Shown: piece after piece, positions 14,295 to 36,894 of the stretch | How the letters are laid out: each line of letters opens with the position of its first letter | Numbering within the stretch: the stretch's first letter is position 1 | Origin: an uncultured Candidatus Saccharibacteria bacterium | GTDB lineage: Bacteria; Patescibacteriota; Saccharimonadia; Saccharimonadales; JAGQNJ01 | NCBI GenBank assembly: GCA_964584895.1 | Contig: CAZPAW010000002.1 | Span: forward strand, 130,748 to 194,747 | Length of the DNA: 64,000 nucleotides | Direction of reading: 5' to 3' | The notes under the pieces: model-generated | What the model was told of the DNA's origin: nothing | Databases searched by the model: none | Seen by the model: the letters and a program-made list of their open reading frames with translations, nothing else | Position numbers and translations under genes: made by a program

Positions 14295-14319
14295 AACCGC
14301 CACAAAAAGGCGGTTTTTT
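14295..14319 (+). terminator. intrinsic-terminator-like hairpin
   Basis: AACCGCC-ACAAAAA-GGCGGTT followed by a T-run (14314-14319). It lies about 150 nt after rpsI and 20 nt before ATG 14339. Confidence 0.6.
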
Positions 14320-25164: not shown

Positions 25165-25230
25165 CTCTGGTATTATTGACATAGACAGCACATACTATAA
25201 ATGTATGTGTTTTTTAATAGGAGGCACAAT

Positions 25231-26567: not shown

Positions 26568-26990
26568 ATGGCAAAAAAAGTTACAGCAAATTTAAAGATG
26601 AAAATCTCAGCTGGTAAAGCTAGTGCCGGACCTCCAGTAGGTTCAACCCTAGGTCAGTACGGCGTAAATATGATGGATTTTGTTACACCGTTTAACGAAC
26701 AAACACGTGAGTTAAAAGGCACAGTTACAGCGCATATTCAGATTTATGATGATAGAAGCATGGATTTTAGAGTAGTCGCCGAGCCTACAGATGATTTGAT
26801 TCGTCAAAAACTAGGTATCGACAAAGGTAGCGGCAAGCCAAACACTGAGAAAATTAGTAAAAAACTAACTGATGCTCAGCTGACTGAAATTGCCGAAATT
26901 AAAGCCAATGACATGAATACGGAAGATATCGAAGCGGTAAAGAAAATGGTTGCCGGCACAGCTAGAAGCATGGGCGTGGAGATAGGATAA
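26568..26990 (+). CDS. rplK: 50S ribosomal protein L11
   Basis: Contains ...KMKISAGKASAGPPVGSTLGQYGVNMMDF.... Confidence 0.97.
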   Translation: MAKKVTANLKMKISAGKASAGPPVGSTLGQYGVNMMDFVTPFNEQTRELKGTVTAHIQIYDDRSMDFRVVAEPTDDLIRQKLGIDKGSGKPNTEKISKKLTDAQLTEIAEIKANDMNTEDIEAVKKMVAGTARSMGVEIG

Positions 26991-26996
26991 ATTATT

Positions 26997-27383
26997 GTGG
27001 GTAGATATTCCGCAGCTACAACTGATGCAAACGAAATTACTACTCGCTTACGTATGGATTCAGATGAAATCGCTGATACGATACGCGCTGCATCTACTAC
27101 GCTTTCTGGAAGCGATTTTCAAGATACCGTCGATCAACTACAAAGATTATGGAAAGACCACCAGGATAGAACAGCGTTGAGCCATCTAAAGAGACTAGAT
27201 CGGCTTGTTTACGGTTTAAATCAGACGACAGGTAAGATTACAGAAGTTGAATTTGTTGACCCACAAACTCTTAGACCCGATGAAAAAGAACAATGGATAG
27301 CTGAAATAACAATGAGATCAGCAGAACGAGAACAGACACAATTCCCTGAAAAATTTTTTGACGACCCACATATTGTCGATTAA
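26997..27383 (+). CDS. hypothetical acidic protein, 128 aa, inserted between rplK and rplA
   Basis: GTG start 9 nt after AGGA (26984-26987). The 387-nt open frame occupies the whole rplK-rplA spacer in AT-rich DNA. No motif recognised. Confidence 0.6.
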   Translation: MGRYSAATTDANEITTRLRMDSDEIADTIRAASTTLSGSDFQDTVDQLQRLWKDHQDRTALSHLKRLDRLVYGLNQTTGKITEVEFVDPQTLRPDEKEQWIAEITMRSAEREQTQFPEKFFDDPHIVD

Positions 27384-27441
27384 TAATTAATAAACTGTGG
27401 GAGGCCGTCGAATAGCCGTTATTACCACGAAAGGAGCCACT

Positions 27442-28416
27442 ATGGCAGAAGCCAAAAAAACAATTAAAAAAACACCAGAACAAGAAAAAGAAATTCTTGA
27501 ATCCATTAAAAAGGCCGATAAAGAAATTGTAGAAAATGAAGCCAAAGAAATTATCGATAAAGAAAAAGCTAAAGTAACCACCAAAAAAGCCGGTAAACAT
27601 AGCGCAAAAGGTATTAAAGAAGAACAAGAAAAACTAGAAAAAATCGAACGTCAAAAGCATAAAGAAGAGCAAATAACTGCAGAAGAGTCTAAACCAAAAA
27701 ATGTTCAAAAACCGGCAAGACCACATCATGAAAGAAAAGGTAAAAAGTATCGTGAAAGTTATAAACTAATTGATAAGAATACTGAATACAGCCTAAACGA
27801 TGCTGTTGCACTAGCAAGAAAAACTAGCACTGTTAAGTTTGACGCCTCGGTAGAGCTACACGTTCGACTAAACGTCGATCCAAAACATGCTGACCAAAAC
27901 ATCAGAGAAAGCATTGTCTTGCCCGCCGGAACAGGTAAAAAAGTAGTGGTCGCGGTATTTGCTGAACCAGAAGATGCTAAAAAAGCAAAAACTGCTGGTG
28001 CTGACATTGTTGGTGAAGATGACTTTTTGCAACGTCTTGATAAAGGACAGTTCGATTTTGATGTATTAATATCTACTCCAAAAATGATGGCTAGGCTTGG
28101 CAAATACGCTAAAGATCTAGGGCCTAGAGGTCTAATGCCAAATCCAAAAAGCGGCACGGTAACAACTGATGTTTCAAAAGCAGTAAACGAATCTAAGGGC
28201 GGTAAGGTTGAGTATCGTGTTGATAGTACGGGAATCGTTCATATTGCCACAGGCAAAGTGAGCTTTAGCGATAAAGACTTAATAACAAATATAAAAACTA
28301 TACTCGCTAGTATAAAGAGCGCAAAACCAACTTCAACAAAAGGCATTTACGTAGAATCTGTATATATCAGCACTTCTATGGGCCCAAGCATCAAACTAGC
28401 TAACAGTATTATTTAA
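27442..28416 (+). CDS. rplA: 50S ribosomal protein L1 with about 98-aa Lys/Glu-rich N-terminal extension
   Basis: ATG 27442 follows AAAGGAG. The canonical L1 sequence begins at ...KGKKYRESYKLIDKNTEYSLNDAVALARK... and continues ...FDASVELHVRLNVDPKHADQNIR.... Confidence 0.93.
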   Translation: MAEAKKTIKKTPEQEKEILESIKKADKEIVENEAKEIIDKEKAKVTTKKAGKHSAKGIKEEQEKLEKIERQKHKEEQITAEESKPKNVQKPARPHHERKGKKYRESYKLIDKNTEYSLNDAVALARKTSTVKFDASVELHVRLNVDPKHADQNIRESIVLPAGTGKKVVVAVFAEPEDAKKAKTAGADIVGEDDFLQRLDKGQFDFDVLISTPKMMARLGKYAKDLGPRGLMPNPKSGTVTTDVSKAVNESKGGKVEYRVDSTGIVHIATGKVSFSDKDLITNIKTILASIKSAKPTSTKGIYVESVYISTSMGPSIKLANSII

Positions 28417-28552: not shown

Positions 28553-29266
28553 TTGTCTGTATATAGCAATACTCAGATCAAACAAGCGATTAACTATGGT
28601 CATATAGTTTGTACCCCTTTTAATCCAAAACATGTTGCCCACGCCAGTCTTGATGTAACGCTAGGATTTTACTATTACCGAACAGAACGAGCGGGAGATC
28701 ACACAATTTACAATCCTTTCGACGAATCTGATGTTGAAAGATATTTCGAGGGCCCACATAAAGCAGTGCCTCACAAACAATGGTGCGACCAAAACGGCGC
28801 AAAACCATTAAAAGGTATTCCGATAGATCATCCAGTTATCCCTATCAAACCCGGCGAGCGAATACTTGCACATACCCACGAGTTTTTTGGCATAAAACCA
28901 CCCGGAGCGTACGAACTAAAATCTCGATCTAGCTGGGGACGTAACGGGATTGCAGTCTGCTTTGATGCCGGATGGGTTGACCCTGGCTACATAAACCGAT
29001 TAACCTTAGAAATATATAACCTAAACCATAAAGAAATCGTATTATTGCCGGTTGGCGAACGCATTGGACAAGCTGTTTTTCATGACACAGGGCAGGTAGA
29101 CGGTAACTACGGCGAAGGCCGAGAGAATGGATTTAGTGGTAAATACCAATCAGGAACAGATTTAGAAACATTAATAAGGCAATGGGAGCCTAGCCAAATG
29201 TTACCTAAAGCTTACAAAGACAAAAGATCGCTCCCAGTGAAAATAAAGGGACTAAAAGGTGATTAA
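28553..29266 (+). CDS. dcd: dCTP deaminase-family protein (dUTPase fold)
   Basis: Contains ...SLDVTLG... and ...KSRSSWGRNGIAVCFDAGWVDPGYINRLTLEIYNLN.... TTG start after GAGGG. Confidence 0.82.
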   Translation: MSVYSNTQIKQAINYGHIVCTPFNPKHVAHASLDVTLGFYYYRTERAGDHTIYNPFDESDVERYFEGPHKAVPHKQWCDQNGAKPLKGIPIDHPVIPIKPGERILAHTHEFFGIKPPGAYELKSRSSWGRNGIAVCFDAGWVDPGYINRLTLEIYNLNHKEIVLLPVGERIGQAVFHDTGQVDGNYGEGRENGFSGKYQSGTDLETLIRQWEPSQMLPKAYKDKRSLPVKIKGLKGD

Positions 29267-31601
29267 CGACCGCCATAACTTTGGTGGGGGAGATAATACC
29301 AACACAAATAAAGGAATATTTATCGTTATTGAAGGCACCGATGGATCGGGCAAAAGCACTCAATACAATTTATTAAAGAAGCACCTAGAAAAACTTGGAC
29401 ACGAAGTAGTGCCAATTCATTTTCCGCGCTATGATCAACCGTCAAGTTATTTTATCCGACAATATCTTGGCGGAGCCTACGGAACAGGCGATCAAGTAAA
29501 CCCTTATTCTAGCTCATTATTTTATGCTTTGGACAGGTATGAAGCGTCGTCTGAGATTAACAAAGCGCTTAACGATGGAAAAATTGTTTTGTGCGATAGA
29601 TTCGTAGGATCAAACATGGCGCATCAAGGTACAAAGTTTAATAATCCAGCCGAACGCAAAGGATATTTTATTTGGTTAGACAATCTCGAATTCGGGACGC
29701 TAGGGATTCCTCGACCTGATATTAGTTTTGTCCTTAATAATCCATTTGATGTAATATCATCCCGGCTTAGTATCAAACAAGAGTCTAGCACTCATGTGAA
29801 TAAAAAAGACGTCCACGAAGTTGATCCTGATCATATAAAAAAATCAATCGAAGTTTACCGTGATATGTGCGAGCTTTTTCCTAAAGATTTTGTAAGAATC
29901 GATTGCTCTAGAAACGGCATAATTTTATCACCTGATGATGTATTTAGTTTGTTATGGGAAAAGATTATGCCTAGACTGCCAATTAACAACCAACCAAATC
30001 CGGATATAACAGATGCTGATTATGTCATAAAGAATCAAAATGGATCATACTCTATCACAAGCGCCGGTAAAGAATTTCTCGAAGGCGCCATTACAAACAC
30101 AGATGACAATGTCTATGCATTCACAGGCGAAAAACTAACACCAATTACGGCTGCAGCTGCCATGGCTAGACTAAGTCGTCGTGGTGATGATATGCGCGTT
30201 ACGATTTTAGACGAATTTGCGAAGAATCTAGGTAAAGATGAAGGCCTATTGAAACGTGTCATAACTGCGTATGGCGATGACTCTGTACAGCAACTAGTCG
30301 GTCAACATCTAGTTATAGAAGAAGCATCAAATTTGCTTACAAAAAAACTAGAATGGGGAAGATTAGCTTCCTATCTAGAACAATCAACTAGATATATATA
30401 TTTTGACCAAAAAGACAAAAATGGACGCTACAAATACTACACCCCTCCAGAATTAGACAATCAAACAAAGCAAGTTTATGAGCAAACAATGGACGAACTA
30501 TTTGACAATTATTCAAAACTCGCCAGCGACCTAACGGACTACGTTAGGAATCAATCATCCGTGCCAGCATCAGAACAAGATATTGCCTGGAAAGGCGCAA
30601 CGAGAGCTCAAGCATGTGATGCAATAAGAGCAGTACTACCGGTAGCCACGAAATCGACTGTAGGAATATATGCTTCTGGGCAAGCCTTAGAAAGCTTAAT
30701 TATGCACTTGCAAAGTGATGAGCTTGCAGAAGCGAGGATTACAGGAAGCAAAATCCTAACAGAATCCAGAAAGGTTTTACCAGCATTTTTAGAACGTGCC
30801 GATAAGCCAGAAAGAGGTGGTGCGAATATTGCCTATAGAGCAAATACAGCAAAAAAGATAAGTCAACTTTCAGAAGCCTACCTTCCGAACACCAACGTTG
30901 GCTCAAACCAAGACGCCGTTCTAACTGATTACTGGCCAAAAAATGAGTTCGATCTGGTAGCGGACATGTTATATGATCAAAGCTCTCTGTCGCTCGAAGA
31001 TATTCGTAAAAATGTCGCTGAGTGGCCTTTTAAGCGTAAACAAGAGGTTTTTGATGCTTATATGGGAGAGAGGTTGAATCGACGCCATAAGCCGGGCAGA
31101 GCCCTAGAAAAGGCCCATTACAGTTGGGACATAGTCTGTGATTATGGAATATTTCGCGACCTACAACGTCATCGAATAGTCGATGACCTAGAGTGGCAAC
31201 AACTTACGCCTAGATATGGCTACGAAGTACCAGAATTAGTCGAAAAAGCAGGTCTTAGTGATATTTTTGAGCAAAGTTTTGATCTTAGTCTCAAGCTCTA
31301 CAGTGATTTACAGCAGGCAGGATACGCACTAGAGGCACAATATGCTACTTTGCTCGGCCACAGAATGCGTTGGAAGGTTACATACAACGCTAGGGAGGCT
31401 TTTCACCTACACGAACTACGCACCGCTCCTCAAGGGCATCCAGGCTATAGAAGGCTAGTAAAACAAATGCACGATCGGTTATGCGAAGTTCACCCATCAA
31501 TCGGCGCAGCAATGAAATTTGTTAATAAAGATGAGGATCCTGAATTAACTAGATTGGCAGCTGAACGCTACACCCAATTCAAACTTAGAGATCTGGGTTA
31601 G
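29259..31601 (+). CDS. fusion protein: dTMP kinase (N-terminal) + long-form flavin-dependent thymidylate synthase ThyX-like (C-terminal)
   Basis: Tmk P-loop ...FIVIEGTDGSGKSTQ... and ...CDRFVGSNMAHQG.... Thy1-like region ...AAAMARLSRRGDD..., ...GIFRDLQRHRIVDD..., ...REAFHLHELRTAPQGHPGYRRLV.... The GTG start overlaps the dcd stop by 8 nt. Confidence 0.8.
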   Translation: MINDRHNFGGGDNTNTNKGIFIVIEGTDGSGKSTQYNLLKKHLEKLGHEVVPIHFPRYDQPSSYFIRQYLGGAYGTGDQVNPYSSSLFYALDRYEASSEINKALNDGKIVLCDRFVGSNMAHQGTKFNNPAERKGYFIWLDNLEFGTLGIPRPDISFVLNNPFDVISSRLSIKQESSTHVNKKDVHEVDPDHIKKSIEVYRDMCELFPKDFVRIDCSRNGIILSPDDVFSLLWEKIMPRLPINNQPNPDITDADYVIKNQNGSYSITSAGKEFLEGAITNTDDNVYAFTGEKLTPITAAAAMARLSRRGDDMRVTILDEFAKNLGKDEGLLKRVITAYGDDSVQQLVGQHLVIEEASNLLTKKLEWGRLASYLEQSTRYIYFDQKDKNGRYKYYTPPELDNQTKQVYEQTMDELFDNYSKLASDLTDYVRNQSSVPASEQDIAWKGATRAQACDAIRAVLPVATKSTVGIYASGQALESLIMHLQSDELAEARITGSKILTESRKVLPAFLERADKPERGGANIAYRANTAKKISQLSEAYLPNTNVGSNQDAVLTDYWPKNEFDLVADMLYDQSSLSLEDIRKNVAEWPFKRKQEVFDAYMGERLNRRHKPGRALEKAHYSWDIVCDYGIFRDLQRHRIVDDLEWQQLTPRYGYEVPELVEKAGLSDIFEQSFDLSLKLYSDLQQAGYALEAQYATLLGHRMRWKVTYNAREAFHLHELRTAPQGHPGYRRLVKQMHDRLCEVHPSIGAAMKFVNKDEDPELTRLAAERYTQFKLRDLG

Positions 31602-31911
31602 GCATTCTATAAGTTACTTCCATAAGAGCACCCTCTTCATTAAAAACACGGTCAACGGATAAAACCATCTCACCAATGGCTAAAACGAGACTTGGGTCAT
31701 CTAGACGAGGCATAATATCGGCTTCGTCGATAAAAACTTCATGGGCAACAGAATGTATCTGGTTGTATCCAACAGCAAAATACCCAAGAATTGATCTTTT
31801 TGGTGCATAACCGTCTAATATCCGACCAAGATTTTCGGCAACATCTTTACCCATTCTTGCTCCAAGAGTCTCAACCGAATCGCTTGGGTTAGGTAACCTA
31901 ATTAGTGACAT
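31585..31911 (-). CDS. hypothetical acidic protein, 108 aa
   Basis: SD GAGGA 6 nt upstream of the ATG. The 3' end overlaps tmk-thyX by 17 nt (convergent). No motif recognised. Confidence 0.6.
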   Translation of the reverse strand: MSLIRLPNPSDSVETLGARMGKDVAENLGRILDGYAPKRSILGYFAVGYNQIHSVAHEVFIDEADIMPRLDDPSLVLAIGEMVLSVDRVFNEEGALMEVTYRMPNPDL

Positions 31912-31923
31912 AATTTCCTCATT

Positions 31924-32068
31924 AAAAAACCTCCGCTGATGGGAGGCTGATCTTTCATTATTTATTGCTTTATTGCAACAGGCCTCCGTACATATCGCTA
32001 CAAATGATCACGCGATCTGCGAGCATTGCTTTGTGGCTATATTTAACTGGTTGCATTAAATTTTTCAT
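31924..32068 (-). promoter_or_regulatory. candidate attenuator leader (32-codon leader ORF, antiterminator/terminator alternative)
   Basis: On the minus strand there is an ORF at complement(31970..32068), MKNLMQPVKYSHKAMLADRVIICSDMYGGLLQ. GGAGGC (31982-31987) can pair with GCCTCC (31942-31947). GCCTCC can alternatively pair with GGAGG (31930-31934), which is followed by T6 (31924-29), 13 nt before the start codon at 31911. Confidence 0.4.
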
Positions 32069-32099
32069 ACCGCATTTAAAATTACTCCTACAAAAATAA

Positions 32100-32128
32100 C
32101 TTGTCAAGAATTTTTTTTGTGATAAATT
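32100..32128. promoter_or_regulatory. candidate divergent promoter core
   Basis: The near-palindrome CTTGTCAAG (32100-32108) gives TTGTCA on the plus strand (16-nt spacer to TAAATT 32123-32128) and TTGACA on the minus strand (17-nt spacer to TAATTT 32084-32079). Consensus match only. Confidence 0.3.
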
Positions 32129-32137
32129 ATATATCTA

Positions 32138-32272
32138 ATGACTACAAATACGTTGAAGCAACAGATTTTACTCCTCGGCCTACAAGGGTTGTGCTTCAAC
32201 ATGGTTGAAGCCTAAGCGAACATCTCGCTTCTAGCACAACCGACATCAGACGGCTTCAACGAAGCCGATTTT
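32138..32272 (+). promoter_or_regulatory. candidate multi-state attenuator leader (25-codon leader ORF, four alternating 8-mers, terminator)
   Basis: GTTGAAGC at 32152 and 32204, GCTTCAAC at 32193 and 32253. Terminator-like CGGCTTC-AAC-GAAGCCG (32251-32267) followed by ATTTTT. ORF 32138-32215 encodes MTTNTLKQQILLLGLQGLCFNMVEA. Confidence 0.45.
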
Positions 32273-32292
32273 TAATTTATAAGGAGAAAAAT

Positions 32293-32766
32293 ATGGAAAT
32301 AACTAAAGAATATAGGAACAATCATAACAAGCTAGTATTCACACCAGATCCCAGTTATTCACTCGCCACTGTCAGTGGCACCCCAAAAACCACAATTATA
32401 GGTTCTAGGAATAAAACTAGTATTCGCGAGACTGAAGTCGATGAAATTTCAAGTATGAGTATTTTCGACTTTAAAGGAGTTTTATACGCTATGTCGATGG
32501 CATATTTAGAATCATCTAAAGCAAGTGTTCAAGAAAAAATAACCACAGAAGATGACCACACTGTATTAATGAGTGGAATTGTGAAACGAGCAACTCGATA
32601 TTACATTGATTCTAGCGAAATTGATCCAATCGTGAATTATTTAGAACTCAGGAACACCTGCAGATTCTCAGATGAAGAAGGGAATAGCGGTTCGTCGTTA
32701 CCCAGACAGCCAATTGTGCCAAATAACAGTGGTTCAATGGCAATAGAACTAATAAACGTGGCATAA
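32293..32766 (+). CDS. hypothetical protein, 157 aa
   Basis: Strong SD (AAGGAG 32281-32286). No motif recognised. Confidence 0.65.
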   Translation: MEITKEYRNNHNKLVFTPDPSYSLATVSGTPKTTIIGSRNKTSIRETEVDEISSMSIFDFKGVLYAMSMAYLESSKASVQEKITTEDDHTVLMSGIVKRATRYYIDSSEIDPIVNYLELRNTCRFSDEEGNSGSSLPRQPIVPNNSGSMAIELINVA

Positions 32767-32789
32767 ATTAAATATAAGAAGGAGTAGAT

Positions 32790-33008
32790 ATGAGATTTTC
32801 AATAGAAGGAGAAACAGGACACGGAGATGGGGGCATTCAGCCAGATAATGTCGTGAGAATTGAAAGAATTCTTCCAGCGGCATCAGAAGCAATTGGAAAA
32901 CCCGCAATACGAGGTTACGGTATTTCTTATACTGGGAATGATAGGGACACAATAGCCCCAGATGTCATAACACCTCCGACACACTCAATAGTCGAGGTAA
33001 TAGCTTGA
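32790..33008 (+). CDS. hypothetical acidic protein, 72 aa
   Basis: Strong SD (AAGGAG) 6 nt upstream. No motif recognised. Confidence 0.55.
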   Translation: MRFSIEGETGHGDGGIQPDNVVRIERILPAASEAIGKPAIRGYGISYTGNDRDTIAPDVITPPTHSIVEVIA

Positions 33009-33115
33009 CAGGTTTTCATATAATAGTAGGATAAAAAACATGGGCAAGATAATAATTATTGAAATTATTGAAGGAACCGTAAACGCGGAGTAGTGTTAAT
33101 ATTTATAAGCTAACG

Positions 33116-33139
33116 AACCCCGCAACCAGCGGGGTTTTT
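33116..33139 (+). terminator. intrinsic-terminator-like hairpin
   Basis: AACCCCGC-AACCA-GCGGGGTT plus a T-run (33135-33139), 20 nt before ATG 33159. Confidence 0.65.
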
Positions 33140-33158
33140 AAATAATAAGGAGTAGATA

Positions 33159-33542
33159 ATGAGTTTTGATCACAATAGTCTAGAATACAGCACACCTGAT
33201 CACGAAGCTGCAATTGATTTACGTGAATTAGGATTACAAGAGCGGCAATTAGTTACTCAACAGCTTGCAGACTTTATGATAAGTGGCTTTAATGATAGTC
33301 AACTAATAGTGGCCACAAGCTCAGTTGAATTTTTATACGCAAGAGCATCTACCGTAAACAGTCCTTATACCTATTTTGAAGCGGATGTTTTTGCAAGAGC
33401 AGCTTTGTTGGCTATTAATGAACGCGATTTACCTGAAAAGCCTATACTTACTAATCGGATAAAAAAATCTAGGAATGTATCACAAGGCAGGGCTGGATGC
33501 ACGGACGTCCCAGAACTAAAACTAATTGACGCTGCATCATAA
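33159..33542 (+). CDS. hypothetical protein, 127 aa
   Basis: Strong SD (AAGGAG 33147-33152). No motif recognised. Confidence 0.6.
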   Translation: MSFDHNSLEYSTPDHEAAIDLRELGLQERQLVTQQLADFMISGFNDSQLIVATSSVEFLYARASTVNSPYTYFEADVFARAALLAINERDLPEKPILTNRIKKSRNVSQGRAGCTDVPELKLIDAAS

Positions 33543-33566
33543 CTCTGTTAAGATAATAATGTTAAT

Positions 33567-33675
33567 TACCAAAGACAGCGATGGTCAAATCGACTTAATC
33601 ATATCGCCGAGGCAAAAACATCAACTTTTTGTATCGTACGTTTTTAAAAGTCTTTGGTAGCCCAAAGACTTTTTT
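33567..33675 (+). promoter_or_regulatory. candidate rplJ (L10) leader with antiterminator/terminator alternative
   Basis: A 12-bp hairpin AAAAGTCTTTGG-TAGC-CCAAAGACTTTT plus T-run (33646-33675). TACCAAAGAC (33567-33576) can pair instead with GTCTTTGGTA (33650-33659). It lies 45 nt upstream of rplJ. Confidence 0.5.
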
Positions 33676-33719
33676 AGTCTTCGAACATTTATATTAAAAA
33701 TAATTAAAGAAAGGAAGAT

Positions 33720-34250
33720 ATGGCTTTAACAAAAGATCAAAAGAAAGATATTGTTGAAGAGGTGTCTAACTTGCTTGAAACTTCAAAACTAACTGTTATC
33801 GCAGAGTACAAAGATACAAGCGTAAAACAATTACAAGAACTACGAAAATTGGCTAGAGAAAGTGAAACTCTAGTAAAGGTAGTAAAAAACCGTCTTGTTA
33901 TTAAAGCTATGAAGTCTAACGAGCGATTTAGCTCTATAGATACAAGTACCGTTAATGGACAGTTACTTTACGCCTTTAACTCTGTCGACGAAGTTGCACC
34001 TGCACAAAGCTTGGCTAATTTTGCTAAAAAGAACCCAAGCATAAAATTCGTCGGGGGGATAACATCAGATGGTCAATTGATTAACGCTGATGATGTGGCA
34101 GCGCTTGCCGCATTGCCAAGCAAAGATCAATTAAGAGCACAGTTAGTTGGAACGATTGCCGCTCCACTTAGCGGATTCATGAATGTACTATCAGGCAATG
34201 TTAGAGGAGTACTCAATGTTCTTCAAGCAAGAGCAGATGCAATTAATTAA
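33720..34250 (+). CDS. rplJ: 50S ribosomal protein L10
   Basis: 176 aa, begins MALTKDQKKDIVEEV... and sits directly upstream of rplL. Confidence 0.95.
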   Translation: MALTKDQKKDIVEEVSNLLETSKLTVIAEYKDTSVKQLQELRKLARESETLVKVVKNRLVIKAMKSNERFSSIDTSTVNGQLLYAFNSVDEVAPAQSLANFAKKNPSIKFVGGITSDGQLINADDVAALAALPSKDQLRAQLVGTIAAPLSGFMNVLSGNVRGVLNVLQARADAIN

Positions 34251-34829: not shown

Positions 34830-35339
34830 ATGGCGGATGTATCAGACAAACAAATAAAACGACTAAAAGTCTTACTTCAGGAATCTGAAACTAGTTTAGC
34901 GGCTGCGAAGGAGCTGCTTGTTAGCCTTATAGGTGACGACGAAAGTGTCCCAGTGATTCCGAGTGAAGATATCGCCGGAAAGATCATAGAAGGCGTCTTT
35001 GACGGACAGAACATGGTCGGTAGCGATGGCAAGACATACCCAGTTCCCGCGAACTATGCCTCAAAATCTAAACTCGTTGAAGGCGATATTTTAAAACTAA
35101 CAATAGCCGATGATGGGGCGTTTTTGTATAAACAAATTGGACCAGTCGCAAGAACACAAAAAGTCGGTACGCTTGTAATGGAAAGTGGTCATTATTTTGT
35201 AAATGTAGATAAACAAAAATACCGAGTATTGCTTGCTAGTGTAACCTACTTTAAGGCTAAACCTGGCGATCAAGTTAGTATTAATGTTCCAGAAAGTAAC
35301 GACAACGCCGAATGGGCAGCACTAGAAGCCGCACTATAA
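34830..35339 (+). CDS. hypothetical protein, 169 aa (N-terminal helix, beta-rich C-terminal part)
   Basis: Clean ORF where rpoB would be expected after rplL. No motif recognised. Confidence 0.6.
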   Translation: MADVSDKQIKRLKVLLQESETSLAAAKELLVSLIGDDESVPVIPSEDIAGKIIEGVFDGQNMVGSDGKTYPVPANYASKSKLVEGDILKLTIADDGAFLYKQIGPVARTQKVGTLVMESGHYFVNVDKQKYRVLLASVTYFKAKPGDQVSINVPESNDNAEWAALEAAL

Positions 35340-35466: not shown

Positions 35467-36894
35467 ATGGGGAAAGCACTATACCGAAAATATCGGTCAA
35501 AATCTCTTGATGAGATTGTTGGCCAAAAACACATAACCGAAACTCTTGGTAATGCCATTAAATCTGGACACATTAGTCATGCGTATTTATTCACAGGACC
35601 ACGCGGAACAGGTAAAACTAGTATTGCCAGGATAGTCGCGCACTCGGTCAATAATTTGCCCTACAATGCTGACGTAACCGATAATTACGTCGATATTATC
35701 GAGATTGACGCAGCCAGTAATCGCAGGATAGATGAAATCCGAGATTTGAGAGAAAAGGCTATGATTGCTCCTACTTCATCAAAATATAAAGTCTATATTA
35801 TCGATGAAGCTCACATGTTAACAAGAGAAGCATTTAATGCTTTATTGAAAACTTTAGAAGAACCTCCATCTCACGTTATTTTTATACTGGCAACTACAGA
35901 AATCCACAAATTACCAAAAACAATTATTAGTCGAACCCAACATTTCAACTTTAATCCAATTCCAGAATCAGATCTAATAAATCATTTGGAAAATATTGCA
36001 AAAAAAGAAAAGATTAATATCGATAAGTCAGCTCTAGAATTAATCGCAAAACATGGGAGAGGTAGCTTCCGTGACAGCATAAGCTTATTGGATCAGCTCG
36101 GCTCATCTGGAAACAAAATTACTGTCGATACGATTCAACGTGCAATCGGTTCAGCTCCTACTACGATTATTCAAAGCATAATTCATGACATATCAGTCAA
36201 TAACCTCGCCGGAATCCTTGCTACAATCGATCAAATATCCAAACAAAGTTTAGACCCAACAGTAATAGCAGATAGTTTAATTGAAAAAATGCGTGATTCG
36301 ATTCGTAAAGGCGATAATCAAATTCAAAAAAAGAAATTATTTTGGTTATTGAACGAACTTTTAACAGTCCAAAAGTCAGCAGATCCAAGTATTCGTCTAG
36401 AACTAATCTTACTAGAAGCTACCTGGCTTGATGATAATAATAAAGATACCCCAATAATATCTATAAAAAAACAACCAGAAAAACAAAACAAGCAGTCAAA
36501 CGAAGCAGACTTTCAAGTTAAGGAAAAAAGCGAAATTAGTAACAAAAAAGCAGATAATGAATTAGATTTATGGGACAGTGTTATTTCTGACTTGAAGGGT
36601 AAGTACAATTCGTTATACGGCGTAGCCAGAATGGCAGAAGCCAATATTGATGGAAAAACCATAACCCTTAGTTTTAAACATGATTTTCATAAAAGGCGTT
36701 GTAGTGAACCTAGAAATAAAACAATAATAAGCGACACCATTAACAAAATATCAAAAAATGATTACGCACTAAATTTTGTCACCAATCCCAGTATCGTCAC
36801 CAAAGAACCTGAAAAAGAAAGTGTCACAAAATCTTCTGATACACTAGAGACAATAACAAAAGTTTTTGGCGGTGGGGAAGTATTGGACGAATAA
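35467..36894 (+). CDS. dnaX: DNA polymerase III subunit gamma/tau
   Basis: Contains ...HAYLFTGPRGTGKTS..., ...YIIDEAHMLT... and ...TLEEPPSHVIFILATTEIHKLPKTIISRTQ.... Confidence 0.93.
   Translation: MGKALYRKYRSKSLDEIVGQKHITETLGNAIKSGHISHAYLFTGPRGTGKTSIARIVAHSVNNLPYNADVTDNYVDIIEIDAASNRRIDEIRDLREKAMIAPTSSKYKVYIIDEAHMLTREAFNALLKTLEEPPSHVIFILATTEIHKLPKTIISRTQHFNFNPIPESDLINHLENIAKKEKINIDKSALELIAKHGRGSFRDSISLLDQLGSSGNKITVDTIQRAIGSAPTTIIQSIIHDISVNNLAGILATIDQISKQSLDPTVIADSLIEKMRDSIRKGDNQIQKKKLFWLLNELLTVQKSADPSIRLELILLEATWLDDNNKDTPIISIKKQPEKQNKQSNEADFQVKEKSEISNKKADNELDLWDSVISDLKGKYNSLYGVARMAEANIDGKTITLSFKHDFHKRRCSEPRNKTIISDTINKISKNDYALNFVTNPSIVTKEPEKESVTKSSDTLETITKVFGGGEVLDE

Follow-up and report, generated by a model that had tools for sequence, protein, structure and literature searches.

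Candidate leucine- and isoleucine-type leader-peptide attenuators upstream of orphan genes in the variable thyX-rplJ slot of Saccharibacteria

Between a fused tmk-thyX gene and the ribosomal protein gene rplJ, the genome of an uncultured Candidatus Saccharibacteria bacterium carries a 2-kb island of small genes, each of its transcription units opening with a leader that resembles an amino-acid attenuator. The island was analyzed within a window of 64,000 nucleotides (contig CAZPAW010000002.1 of assembly GCA_964584895.1, positions 130,748 to 194,747 of the forward strand); 'the window' refers to this whole stretch, and coordinates are counted from its first letter. An earlier reading of the letters, here called the original prediction, had described a tightly regulated accessory module of genes without any assignable motif. 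The four open reading frames (ORFs) on which it was based are all present, each has a strong Shine-Dalgarno (SD) site as had been noted, and the reported 17-nt overlap of the 108-amino-acid (aa) ORF with the 3' end of thyX is borne out by the end of tmk-thyX at 31601. Its title spoke of five genes, of which four were listed; the short leader ORFs mentioned alongside them are real, and prove to be the key feature of the island. The protein-coding genes, termed cargo here, are as follows.

31585-31911, minus strand: o108, 108 aa, convergent with tmk-thyX, with an overlap of 17 nt
32293-32766, plus strand: o157, 157 aa, first cargo gene of leader A
32790-33008, plus strand: o72, 72 aa, second cargo gene of leader A, with SD site AAGGAG at 32779-32784
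33159-33542, plus strand: o127, 127 aa, cargo gene of leader B

These genes would form three transcription units, namely leader C with o108, leader A with o157 and o72 (which are not separated by a terminator), and leader B with o127. The description of the island as tightly regulated stands, and every unit opens with a promoter, a small ORF and a terminator. Terminator-like hairpins had been predicted inside the island and lie at 32251-32267 and 33117-33135; a third was found at 31948-31928 on the minus strand. Hairpins and leader ORFs had thus both been seen in the original prediction, and what it missed is that together they form candidate leader-peptide attenuators rich in leucine or isoleucine. 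Within the 64-kb window, three of the six sites at which a terminator is followed by an SD site and a gene fall inside the island. Further sites of this kind lie at 14295-14315 (gene start 14339) and 25187-25211 (gene start 25231), with no amino-acid-rich small ORF evident upstream of either. The near-identical SD and start contexts described for o72 and o127 correspond to a 17-nt repeat, 94% identical (32774-32790 and 33142-33158). The elements of the three leaders are listed below.

32101-32273, plus strand: leader A, candidate leucine-type attenuator
32101-32106, plus strand: leader A, -35 box TTGTCA
32123-32130, plus strand: leader A, -10 box
32138-32215, plus strand: leader A, small ORF without an SD site (leaderless geometry), peptide MTTNTLKQQILLLGLQGLCFNMVEA
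32186-32195, plus strand: leader A, stem strand B5', which pairs with strand D at 32233-32241
32204-32212, plus strand: leader A, segment C, the last codons of the ORF (GUUGAAGCC)
32252-32260, plus strand: leader A, segment E, the 5' arm of the terminator (GGCUUCAAC) and antiterminator partner of C
32251-32267, plus strand: leader A, terminator, followed by a T-run, an SD site and the o157 start at 32293
33005-33140, plus strand: leader B, candidate isoleucine-type attenuator
33005-33010, plus strand: leader B, -35 box TTGACA
33027-33032, plus strand: leader B, -10 box TAGGAT
33040-33093, plus strand: leader B, small ORF without an SD site (leaderless geometry), peptide MGKIIIIEIIEGTVNAE
33084-33090, plus strand: leader B, CGCGGAG at the end of the ORF, able to pair with the 5' arm CCCCGC of the terminator
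33117-33135, plus strand: leader B, terminator, followed by a T-run, an SD site and the o127 start at 33159
31928-32107, minus strand: leader C, candidate attenuator for o108, a mirror-image unit
32107-32102, minus strand: leader C, -35 box TTGACA
32084-32079, minus strand: leader C, -10 box TAATTT
32068-31970, minus strand: leader C, small ORF of 32 codons, peptide MKNLMQPVKYSHKAMLADRVIICSDMYGGLLQ
31987-31981, minus strand: leader C, GGAGGCC, able to pair with the 5' arm of the terminator
31948-31928, minus strand: leader C, terminator, followed by a T-run, the SD site GAGGA and the ATG of o108

The peptide encoded by leader A contains the run ILLLGLQGL (pattern I-L-L-L-G-L-x-G-L), and that of leader B the run IIIIEII, with isoleucine at 6 of its 17 codons. 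The L10 protein of the window belongs to a 90%-identity cluster labelled Candidatus Saccharibacteria, and related loci were drawn from metagenome-assembled genomes of Saccharibacteria. In a nucleotide profile search (nhmmer), 22 of about 50 species-representative loci had a single copy of leader A, in every case on the plus strand within the gap between thyX and rplJ; the same profile finds no second copy in the 64-kb window. Furthermore, an exact-pattern scan of metagenome contigs for the core motif of leader A yielded 116 further stretches, and the run of branched-chain codons is kept in about 100 copies of leader A and about 15 of leader B. Each genome has one leader A, and the Saccharibacteria contigs with a copy number about 100. 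Some of the metagenome copies have no thyX upstream, and the element must therefore also occur in other genomic contexts: no thyX is present in more than 2.5 kb upstream of leader A in L079, L093, L096, L098, L107, L113, L126, L130, L134 and L135.

Several observations indicate that the small ORF of leader A is translated. Of 20 aligned reference leaders, 19 keep the peptide frame open across its last 20 codons, while the two alternative frames are open in 1 and 4 of the sequences. Among leaders that are 92% identical, the differences cluster in the leucine codons and are synonymous (TTA CTC CTC; CTA CTG CTA; CTG CTA CTC), and in the 20 reference leaders 56% of the eight codons preceding the GLCF motif specify leucine, isoleucine or valine. 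It is from this substitution pattern and the open frame that translation is deduced. The manner of initiation is suggested by the spacing of the promoter. Of 67 distinct leader A copies, 35 have a promoter with a score of 9 or more out of 12 that stops 6-9 nt (mode 7) short of the ATG. An SD site in front of the small ORF is missing from all 67, and the promoter-to-ATG geometry of leader B matches that of leader A. A sigma-70-type -10 box some 7-10 nt before the ATG, with no SD site, suggests leaderless translation of the small ORFs in leaders A, B and C, and for leader A in particular the ORF is probably translated from a leaderless transcript.

If these ORFs serve to sense an amino acid, the codons within them would be expected to correspond to the genes that follow. 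We sorted 78 distinct copies of leader A by codon run and first cargo gene, with the following numbers of copies.

Leucine-type leader before an HMGL-like/LeuA-like enzyme: 12
Leucine-type leader before a member of the o157 family: 5
Leucine-type leader before other small orphans: 33
Isoleucine-type (IIII) leader before a PALP, threonine-dehydratase-like enzyme: 2
Isoleucine-type leader before other orphans: 6
Mixed-type leader before other orphans: 20

Where the cargo could be annotated, the leader is of leucine type in 12 of 12 cases with HMGL/LeuA and of isoleucine type in 2 of 2 cases with PALP (table 12, 0, 0, 2; Fisher p = 0.011). One of the HMGL-like enzymes has a LeuA_dimer domain in Pfam, the allosteric domain of LeuA, and in L066 it is leader B that stands before RidA and IlvA. 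This correspondence of codons and cargo, seen in relatives, is the pattern expected of amino-acid-specific attenuators.

The RNA structures predicted for these leaders point in the same direction. An intrinsic terminator lies between the leader ORF and the gene in leaders A, B and C, in each case 10-25 nt ahead of the SD site and start of the cargo, and in A and B there is a candidate antiterminator that would exclude the terminator and whose 5' strand would lie under the terminating ribosome. From the 20 leader A sequences RNAalifold picks the antiterminator helix C:E, which is 99% paired with compensatory changes at 3 pairs; the B5':D stem is 87.5% paired with compensatory changes at 4 pairs. 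Neither observed value was reached in any of 500 shuffles, and slid controls were 25-43% paired. The mean duplex energies in leader A are -12.9 kcal/mol for C:E and -9.4 kcal/mol for the terminator, so that the antiterminator should prevail as long as C is free. For leader B, 8 of 9 loci have a GCGGG-like ORF end that pairs with the arm of the terminator at energies of -8 to -15.5 kcal/mol; upstream control windows give mostly about 0 to -5 kcal/mol, with values up to -9.4 in L049. Leader C is regarded as an attenuator provisionally. Its ORF and elements are conserved in the window and in L064, L001 and L002. At 32100-32108 in the window the divergent -35 boxes of leader A (plus strand) and leader C (minus strand) overlap inside the palindrome CTTGTCAAG, and because of this overlap the two units may share or compete for RNA polymerase binding.

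A common design can be proposed from these features, in which a promoter is followed by a leaderless small ORF, a terminator, an SD site and the gene, with the last codons of the small ORF complementary to the 5' arm of the intrinsic terminator. With charged tRNA-Leu or tRNA-Ile in good supply, the ribosome would reach the stop codon and cover the antiterminator strand; the terminator would then form and transcription would stop. When leucine or isoleucine is scarce, the ribosome would stall upstream at the hungry codons and leave the antiterminator strand free, and the free end of the ORF would pair with the terminator arm, allowing the cargo genes to be transcribed. On this model o108, o157, o72 and o127 would most likely be induced when leucine or isoleucine is limiting.

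The strong covariation of two potentially pseudoknotted helices could also be expected of a structured RNA that binds a ligand or a protein in the manner of a riboswitch, with a conserved fold (the B5':D stem and the C:E pseudoknot) competing with the terminator and the overlapping small ORF being incidental or secondary. The nucleotide core GGGCTGTGCTTCA..ATGGTTGAAGCC of leader A is indeed highly conserved, and the conserved half of the peptide, GLCFxMVEA, coincides with RNA strands. A fold of this type does not, however, account for the preservation of one reading frame over the other two, for leucine codons that vary synonymously, or for an aliphatic run that is conserved although it lies outside the helices. 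The stop codon is invariably 0-6 codons past segment C, and the leucine or isoleucine type of the leader tracks LeuA-like or PALP cargo. Nor does Rfam contain a matching aptamer: with lax filters included, no leader or riboswitch family (Leu, Thr, Trp and His leaders, T-box, ppGpp and others) reaches its gathering threshold for leader A or leader B, the best hits being freshwater-2 at 19.9 bits against a threshold of 49.9 and, for leader B, Trp_leader at 20.6 bits against 41. On this evidence a riboswitch-like leader A seems very unlikely.

The reading that we favor is that the leaders carry out classical ribosome-mediated attenuation, sensing branched-chain amino acids and here driving orphan proteins, and we consider it likely to be correct. 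A number of observations weigh against it. For the anti-antiterminator helix B3':C, support does not exceed that seen in shuffles. Equilibrium minimum-free-energy folding with the ribosome footprint masked keeps the terminator hairpin in nearly every state, and in the exception, leader A with the ribosome at the stop codon, the upstream GUUGAAGC is paired with the terminator arm, the opposite of the prediction; the folding program cannot model the B5':D and C:E pseudoknot, and masked folding therefore does not decide the direction of the switch. In the window the antiterminator of leader B has just 4 bp, at -8 kcal/mol. Leader C is known from four close relatives and its peptide run is just V-I-I, which makes it weaker than leaders A and B. 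With regard to cargo, 59 of the 78 cases are unannotated, and the match of codons with enzymes rests on 14 cases. Saccharibacteria are usually regarded as incapable of amino-acid synthesis, and for this reason LeuA-like and IlvA-like cargo is physiologically puzzling.

The proteins encoded downstream of the leaders in the window are orphans. The earlier statement that they contain no assignable motif holds: o108, o157, o72 and o127 have no match at curated thresholds in Pfam, NCBIfam, PHROGs or PADLOC. A suggestion of PcfJ for o127 was disregarded, at 16.5 bits against a cut-off of 25. Their families are lineage-specific, as had been proposed, and comprise at most a few clusters among billions of proteins. 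The o108 family amounts to eight clusters out of 5.8 billion proteins, none bearing a name other than 'hypothetical protein', with homologues in L001 (52%), L002 (69%) and L017 and a copy truncated to 69 aa in L064. The o127 family has five clusters in the same collection, and homologues stand at the same position in L001 and L017. For o72 the sole homologue (36%) comes from L064, where a gene of 78 aa takes the equivalent place. When 1.84 billion cluster representatives were searched exhaustively with HMMER, only three full-length relatives of o157 came up, two of them (P0027 and P0029) encoded in the thyX-rplJ slot and the third (P0030) directly 3' of a leader A copy on a 1.2-kb contig; o157 is found in L064, L066 and L070.

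Structure prediction was carried out for o157 and o127, following the AlphaFold and Foldseek check that the original prediction had proposed. The o157 model (pLDDT 70.7, pTM 0.70) begins with a sheet of four strands, continues with three long helices and ends in a tail, residues 126-157, that is disordered, and the o127 model is all-helical (pLDDT 72.8, pTM 0.63). Foldseek gave no fold match for o157 in the PDB or a viral structure set, or for o127 in the PDB, with best E-values of 0.8 to 3.4 for the two models; profile searches of the PDB likewise found no sequence match for either protein. The frames are open in relatives and profile searches bring up no well-known family, in line with the original description of these genes. 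Residues 7-41 of o157, its N-terminal sheet (window 32311-32415; LVFTPDPSYSLATVSGTPKTTIIG), match a repeat that occurs 11 times in the 912-aa protein P0028 (TVTPDTGYSIASVDGSCGG). As a true relative of o157, P0028 was set aside, with a match to residues 7-41 only and a resemblance at the level of a motif; the resemblance may be one of repeat fold.

Clustering of 82 first-cargo proteins joined the o157 family to many cargo proteins of 56-160 aa through a common C-terminal tail. The tail consists of (V/I)xPY(A/S)G(T/S/D)E, about 15 residues, and (L/M/R/I)PA at the very end. A C-terminal -PA is present in 14 of 71 distinct complete cargo proteins, and the tail of o157 in the window is a degenerate version of PYxGxE...LPA. 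A C-terminal motif common to o157, o72 and o127 was considered and rejected, as only the o157 family and the L064 homologue of o72 link statistically. Against the PYxGxE tail profile the L064 homologue scores 12 bits, a weak match to its first half, and o72 of the window scores 2 bits.

Such small and isolated families might be taken for decaying or non-functional frames, and the leaders for relics of a branched-chain amino-acid operon that has been lost. Real enzymes occupy these places in relatives, the island proteins evolve far faster than their neighbors (36-69% identity against 83-97% for most flanking proteins), o108 has been cut short in L064, and the families are tiny and lack any family or fold match. 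Decay would not, however, be expected to preserve frame and length at 28-38% identity, as is seen for o157 in five loci, for o72 (72 compared with 78 aa) and for o127 in five clusters. The strong SD sites on all four genes, the ordered cores of the AlphaFold models (pTM 0.70 and 0.63) and the C-terminal tail that the o157 family has in common with many cargo proteins also speak for functional genes, and the orphans show no similarity to the enzymes of other loci. We regard it as decidedly unlikely that these are remnants, and prefer to see them as genes under the control of working attenuators.

The position of the island can be followed in 54 species-representative loci gathered with the tmk-thyX protein. 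The backbone rplA-dcd-thyX-[gap]-rplJ-rplL-o169-dnaX-dnaB is kept in nearly all of them, and the gap between thyX and rplJ measures 1.7 kb at the median, with extremes of 216 bp and 5 kb. By BLASTP, 108 of the 141 ORFs in the gap are singletons. The thyX-rplJ interval is an old, variable gene slot in nearly all Saccharibacteria examined. A class IV aminotransferase and M20 peptidases occupy other slots. In the neighborhood comparison proposed in the original prediction, the slot thus recurs in nearly all loci, and the particular genes of the window in few relatives only. In close strains the same island is found at 99.2-100% nucleotide identity, too alike for informative dN/dS.

Comparison with three congeners (L064, L001 and L002) shows how the slot varies. 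Most backbone proteins of the window are 79-98% identical to those of the congeners and the backbone DNA is about 75% identical, whereas the island proteins are 36-69% identical or replaced altogether. The 380-nt stretch between o108 and o157 (IG1, 31890-32310) is 92% identical among the four genomes, compared with about 75% for flanking coding DNA, and the stretch before o127 (IG2) is conserved similarly. The gene that follows IG1 is o157 in the window and L064, and a 427-aa HMGL-like (LeuA-type) enzyme in L001 and L002; the gene that follows IG2 is o127 in the window and L001, and an unrelated 199-aa protein (p199) in L064 and L002. All four pairings of the first cargo (o157-o72 or HMGL) with the second (o127 or p199) are therefore present, which indicates recombination. 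Among themselves the three congeners are about 98% identical in dcd and dnaB. For thyX the identity is 94.7% between L064 and L001 and 84% between L002 and either of them, and for rplJ it is 96.6% between L064 and L002 and about 90% between L001 and either. These mosaic identities, together with the reshuffling of cargo, identify the slot as a recombination hot spot. The conserved leaders sit at the joints of the exchanged pieces, with cargo swapped between species by recombination. What had been presented as a single accessory module is better described as a set of three independently regulated units, with cargo that is reshuffled from one species to another, in an old slot and not a recent insertion.

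Small, fast-evolving, lineage-specific proteins with deep allelic divergence at a recombination hot spot are the typical pattern of conflict systems, and a toxin/immunity function had been among the suggestions made for the island; defence or another type of conflict module would fit the same pattern. The lack of any match in PADLOC, Pfam or PHROGs argues against such a function. No pair of genes is conserved save o157-o72 in two genomes, and the cargo assorts independently among species. The regulatory leaders drive metabolic enzymes in relatives, and features of mobile elements are absent: the island has no integrase or transposase ORF and no flanking repeats were found, as the original prediction had stated, no tRNA is near (the nearest is more than 9 kb off), and its GC content is within the local range, with no anomaly of composition. 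Taken together these points leave a conflict module with hardly any probability, and the toxin/immunity suggestion is not upheld. Attenuation by amino-acid supply remains the explanation that we prefer for the three units.

The genes around the island, and the borders of the slot, are as follows.

26568-26990: rplK
26997-27383: orphan ORF of 128 aa between rplK and rplA, without a recorded Pfam family
27397-28416: rplA
28553-29266: dcd
29259-31601: tmk-thyX fusion, 780 aa, overlapping dcd by 8 nt
33551-33685, plus strand: L10 leader (RF00557; cmscan 72.3 bits, E 2e-10), where the slot ends on the right
33720-34250: rplJ, after the L10 leader and followed by rplL

The island had been said to split rplKA from rplJL. 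It does lie between them, but the separation is mainly due to dcd and tmk-thyX, an arrangement kept across Saccharibacteria. The fusion of thymidylate kinase and ThyX is kept in most Saccharibacteria loci; in L034, L035, L046, L048, L052 and L053 the match is to the ThyX part only. A 44-aa ORF at 33526-33660 was rejected as a gene because it lies inside the L10 leader. As the longest ORF, rplA encodes 339 aa, with an N-terminal extension of about 100 residues rich in lysine and glutamate. The interval between rplK and rplA contains ORFs of 77-78 aa in relatives where the window has the 128-aa ORF. Between rplL and dnaX a 169-aa protein (o169, 34830-35339) shows 97-98% identity among congeners and 65-78% in the remaining Saccharibacteria loci examined, and dnaX itself (35467-36894) is only about 60% identical among these congeners, against 94% for their dnaB. 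The rplA-dcd, rplL-o169 and o169-dnaX intervals likewise differ by kilobases between species (loci L001-L054), and the thyX-rplJ slot may be one among several variable slots of the backbone.

Leader-peptide attenuators control the leu, ilvGMEDA/ilvBN, thr and trp operons of Proteobacteria and the ilvB and leuA genes of Actinobacteria. The leaders described here are like them in having a short ORF rich in the amino acid that would be sensed, an intrinsic terminator just ahead of the first structural gene, and a predicted antiterminator strand that is common with the terminator and would be occluded by the ribosome as it finishes the ORF; in relatives, leucine-rich leaders also stand before LeuA-type genes and isoleucine-rich leaders before IlvA-type genes. 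The general background of leader-peptide attenuation in amino-acid operons is given elsewhere (PMC1183508, PMC2965389). Unlike the known leaders, A and B belong to no leader family in Rfam, their ORF is apparently leaderless, and leader A has an extra covarying B5':D stem that would form a pseudoknot with the antiterminator. Furthermore, one RNA scaffold is found with leucine, isoleucine or mixed codon runs, and the cargo is mostly one or two tiny orphan proteins and not a biosynthetic operon.

Leaderless small regulatory ORFs are found in Actinobacteria, for example the cysteine-rich upstream ORFs (uORFs) of mycobacteria. These also have a short ORF at or next to the transcription start, with no SD site and enrichment for one amino acid, and are placed upstream of genes related to that amino acid. 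They differ from the leaders of Saccharibacteria in phylum and in sequence family, and an explicit covarying terminator/antiterminator pair is present here. Another point of comparison is provided in the same neighborhood by the L10 leader, which binds protein and is autoregulated by the L10(L12)4 complex (PMC4538822). It resembles leaders A, B and C as a cis-acting leader with a terminator directly upstream of a gene, but none of the three matches RF00557, and for these we propose sensors of the leader-peptide type instead.

The mechanism proposed for the leaders is thus of a known kind, and what is new is the RNA family, which lies outside Rfam, the host phylum and the cargo. New as well are the apparently leaderless leader ORFs, an antiterminator with the predicted capacity to form a pseudoknot, and cargo that is mostly tiny, fast-evolving and orphan. 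No report of amino-acid-sensing leaders in Saccharibacteria or other bacteria of the candidate phyla radiation was found in the literature searched. A more far-reaching idea is that in Saccharibacteria, whose amino acids come from a host bacterium, leaderless leucine/isoleucine attenuators act as a gauge of nutrient supply, with starvation switching on hypervariable, recombining small proteins; we think this rather unlikely. If it were true, proteins with the PYxGxE...LPA tail might affect the host or the growth of the symbiont itself, and the leaders and their cargo would be an undescribed sensor-effector system and not the leftover of biosynthetic regulation.

Little is known of gene regulation in Saccharibacteria and other bacteria of the candidate phyla radiation. 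In this respect, leader A provides a concrete and widespread cis-regulatory element, with about 100 copies and a fixed position in reference genomes. The conserved leaders can serve as fixed joints between which cargo genes are exchanged. If they act as proposed, expression of the orphan cargo should report the supply of leucine and isoleucine, and this would offer a route to measuring how an obligate episymbiont senses the amino acids provided by its host.

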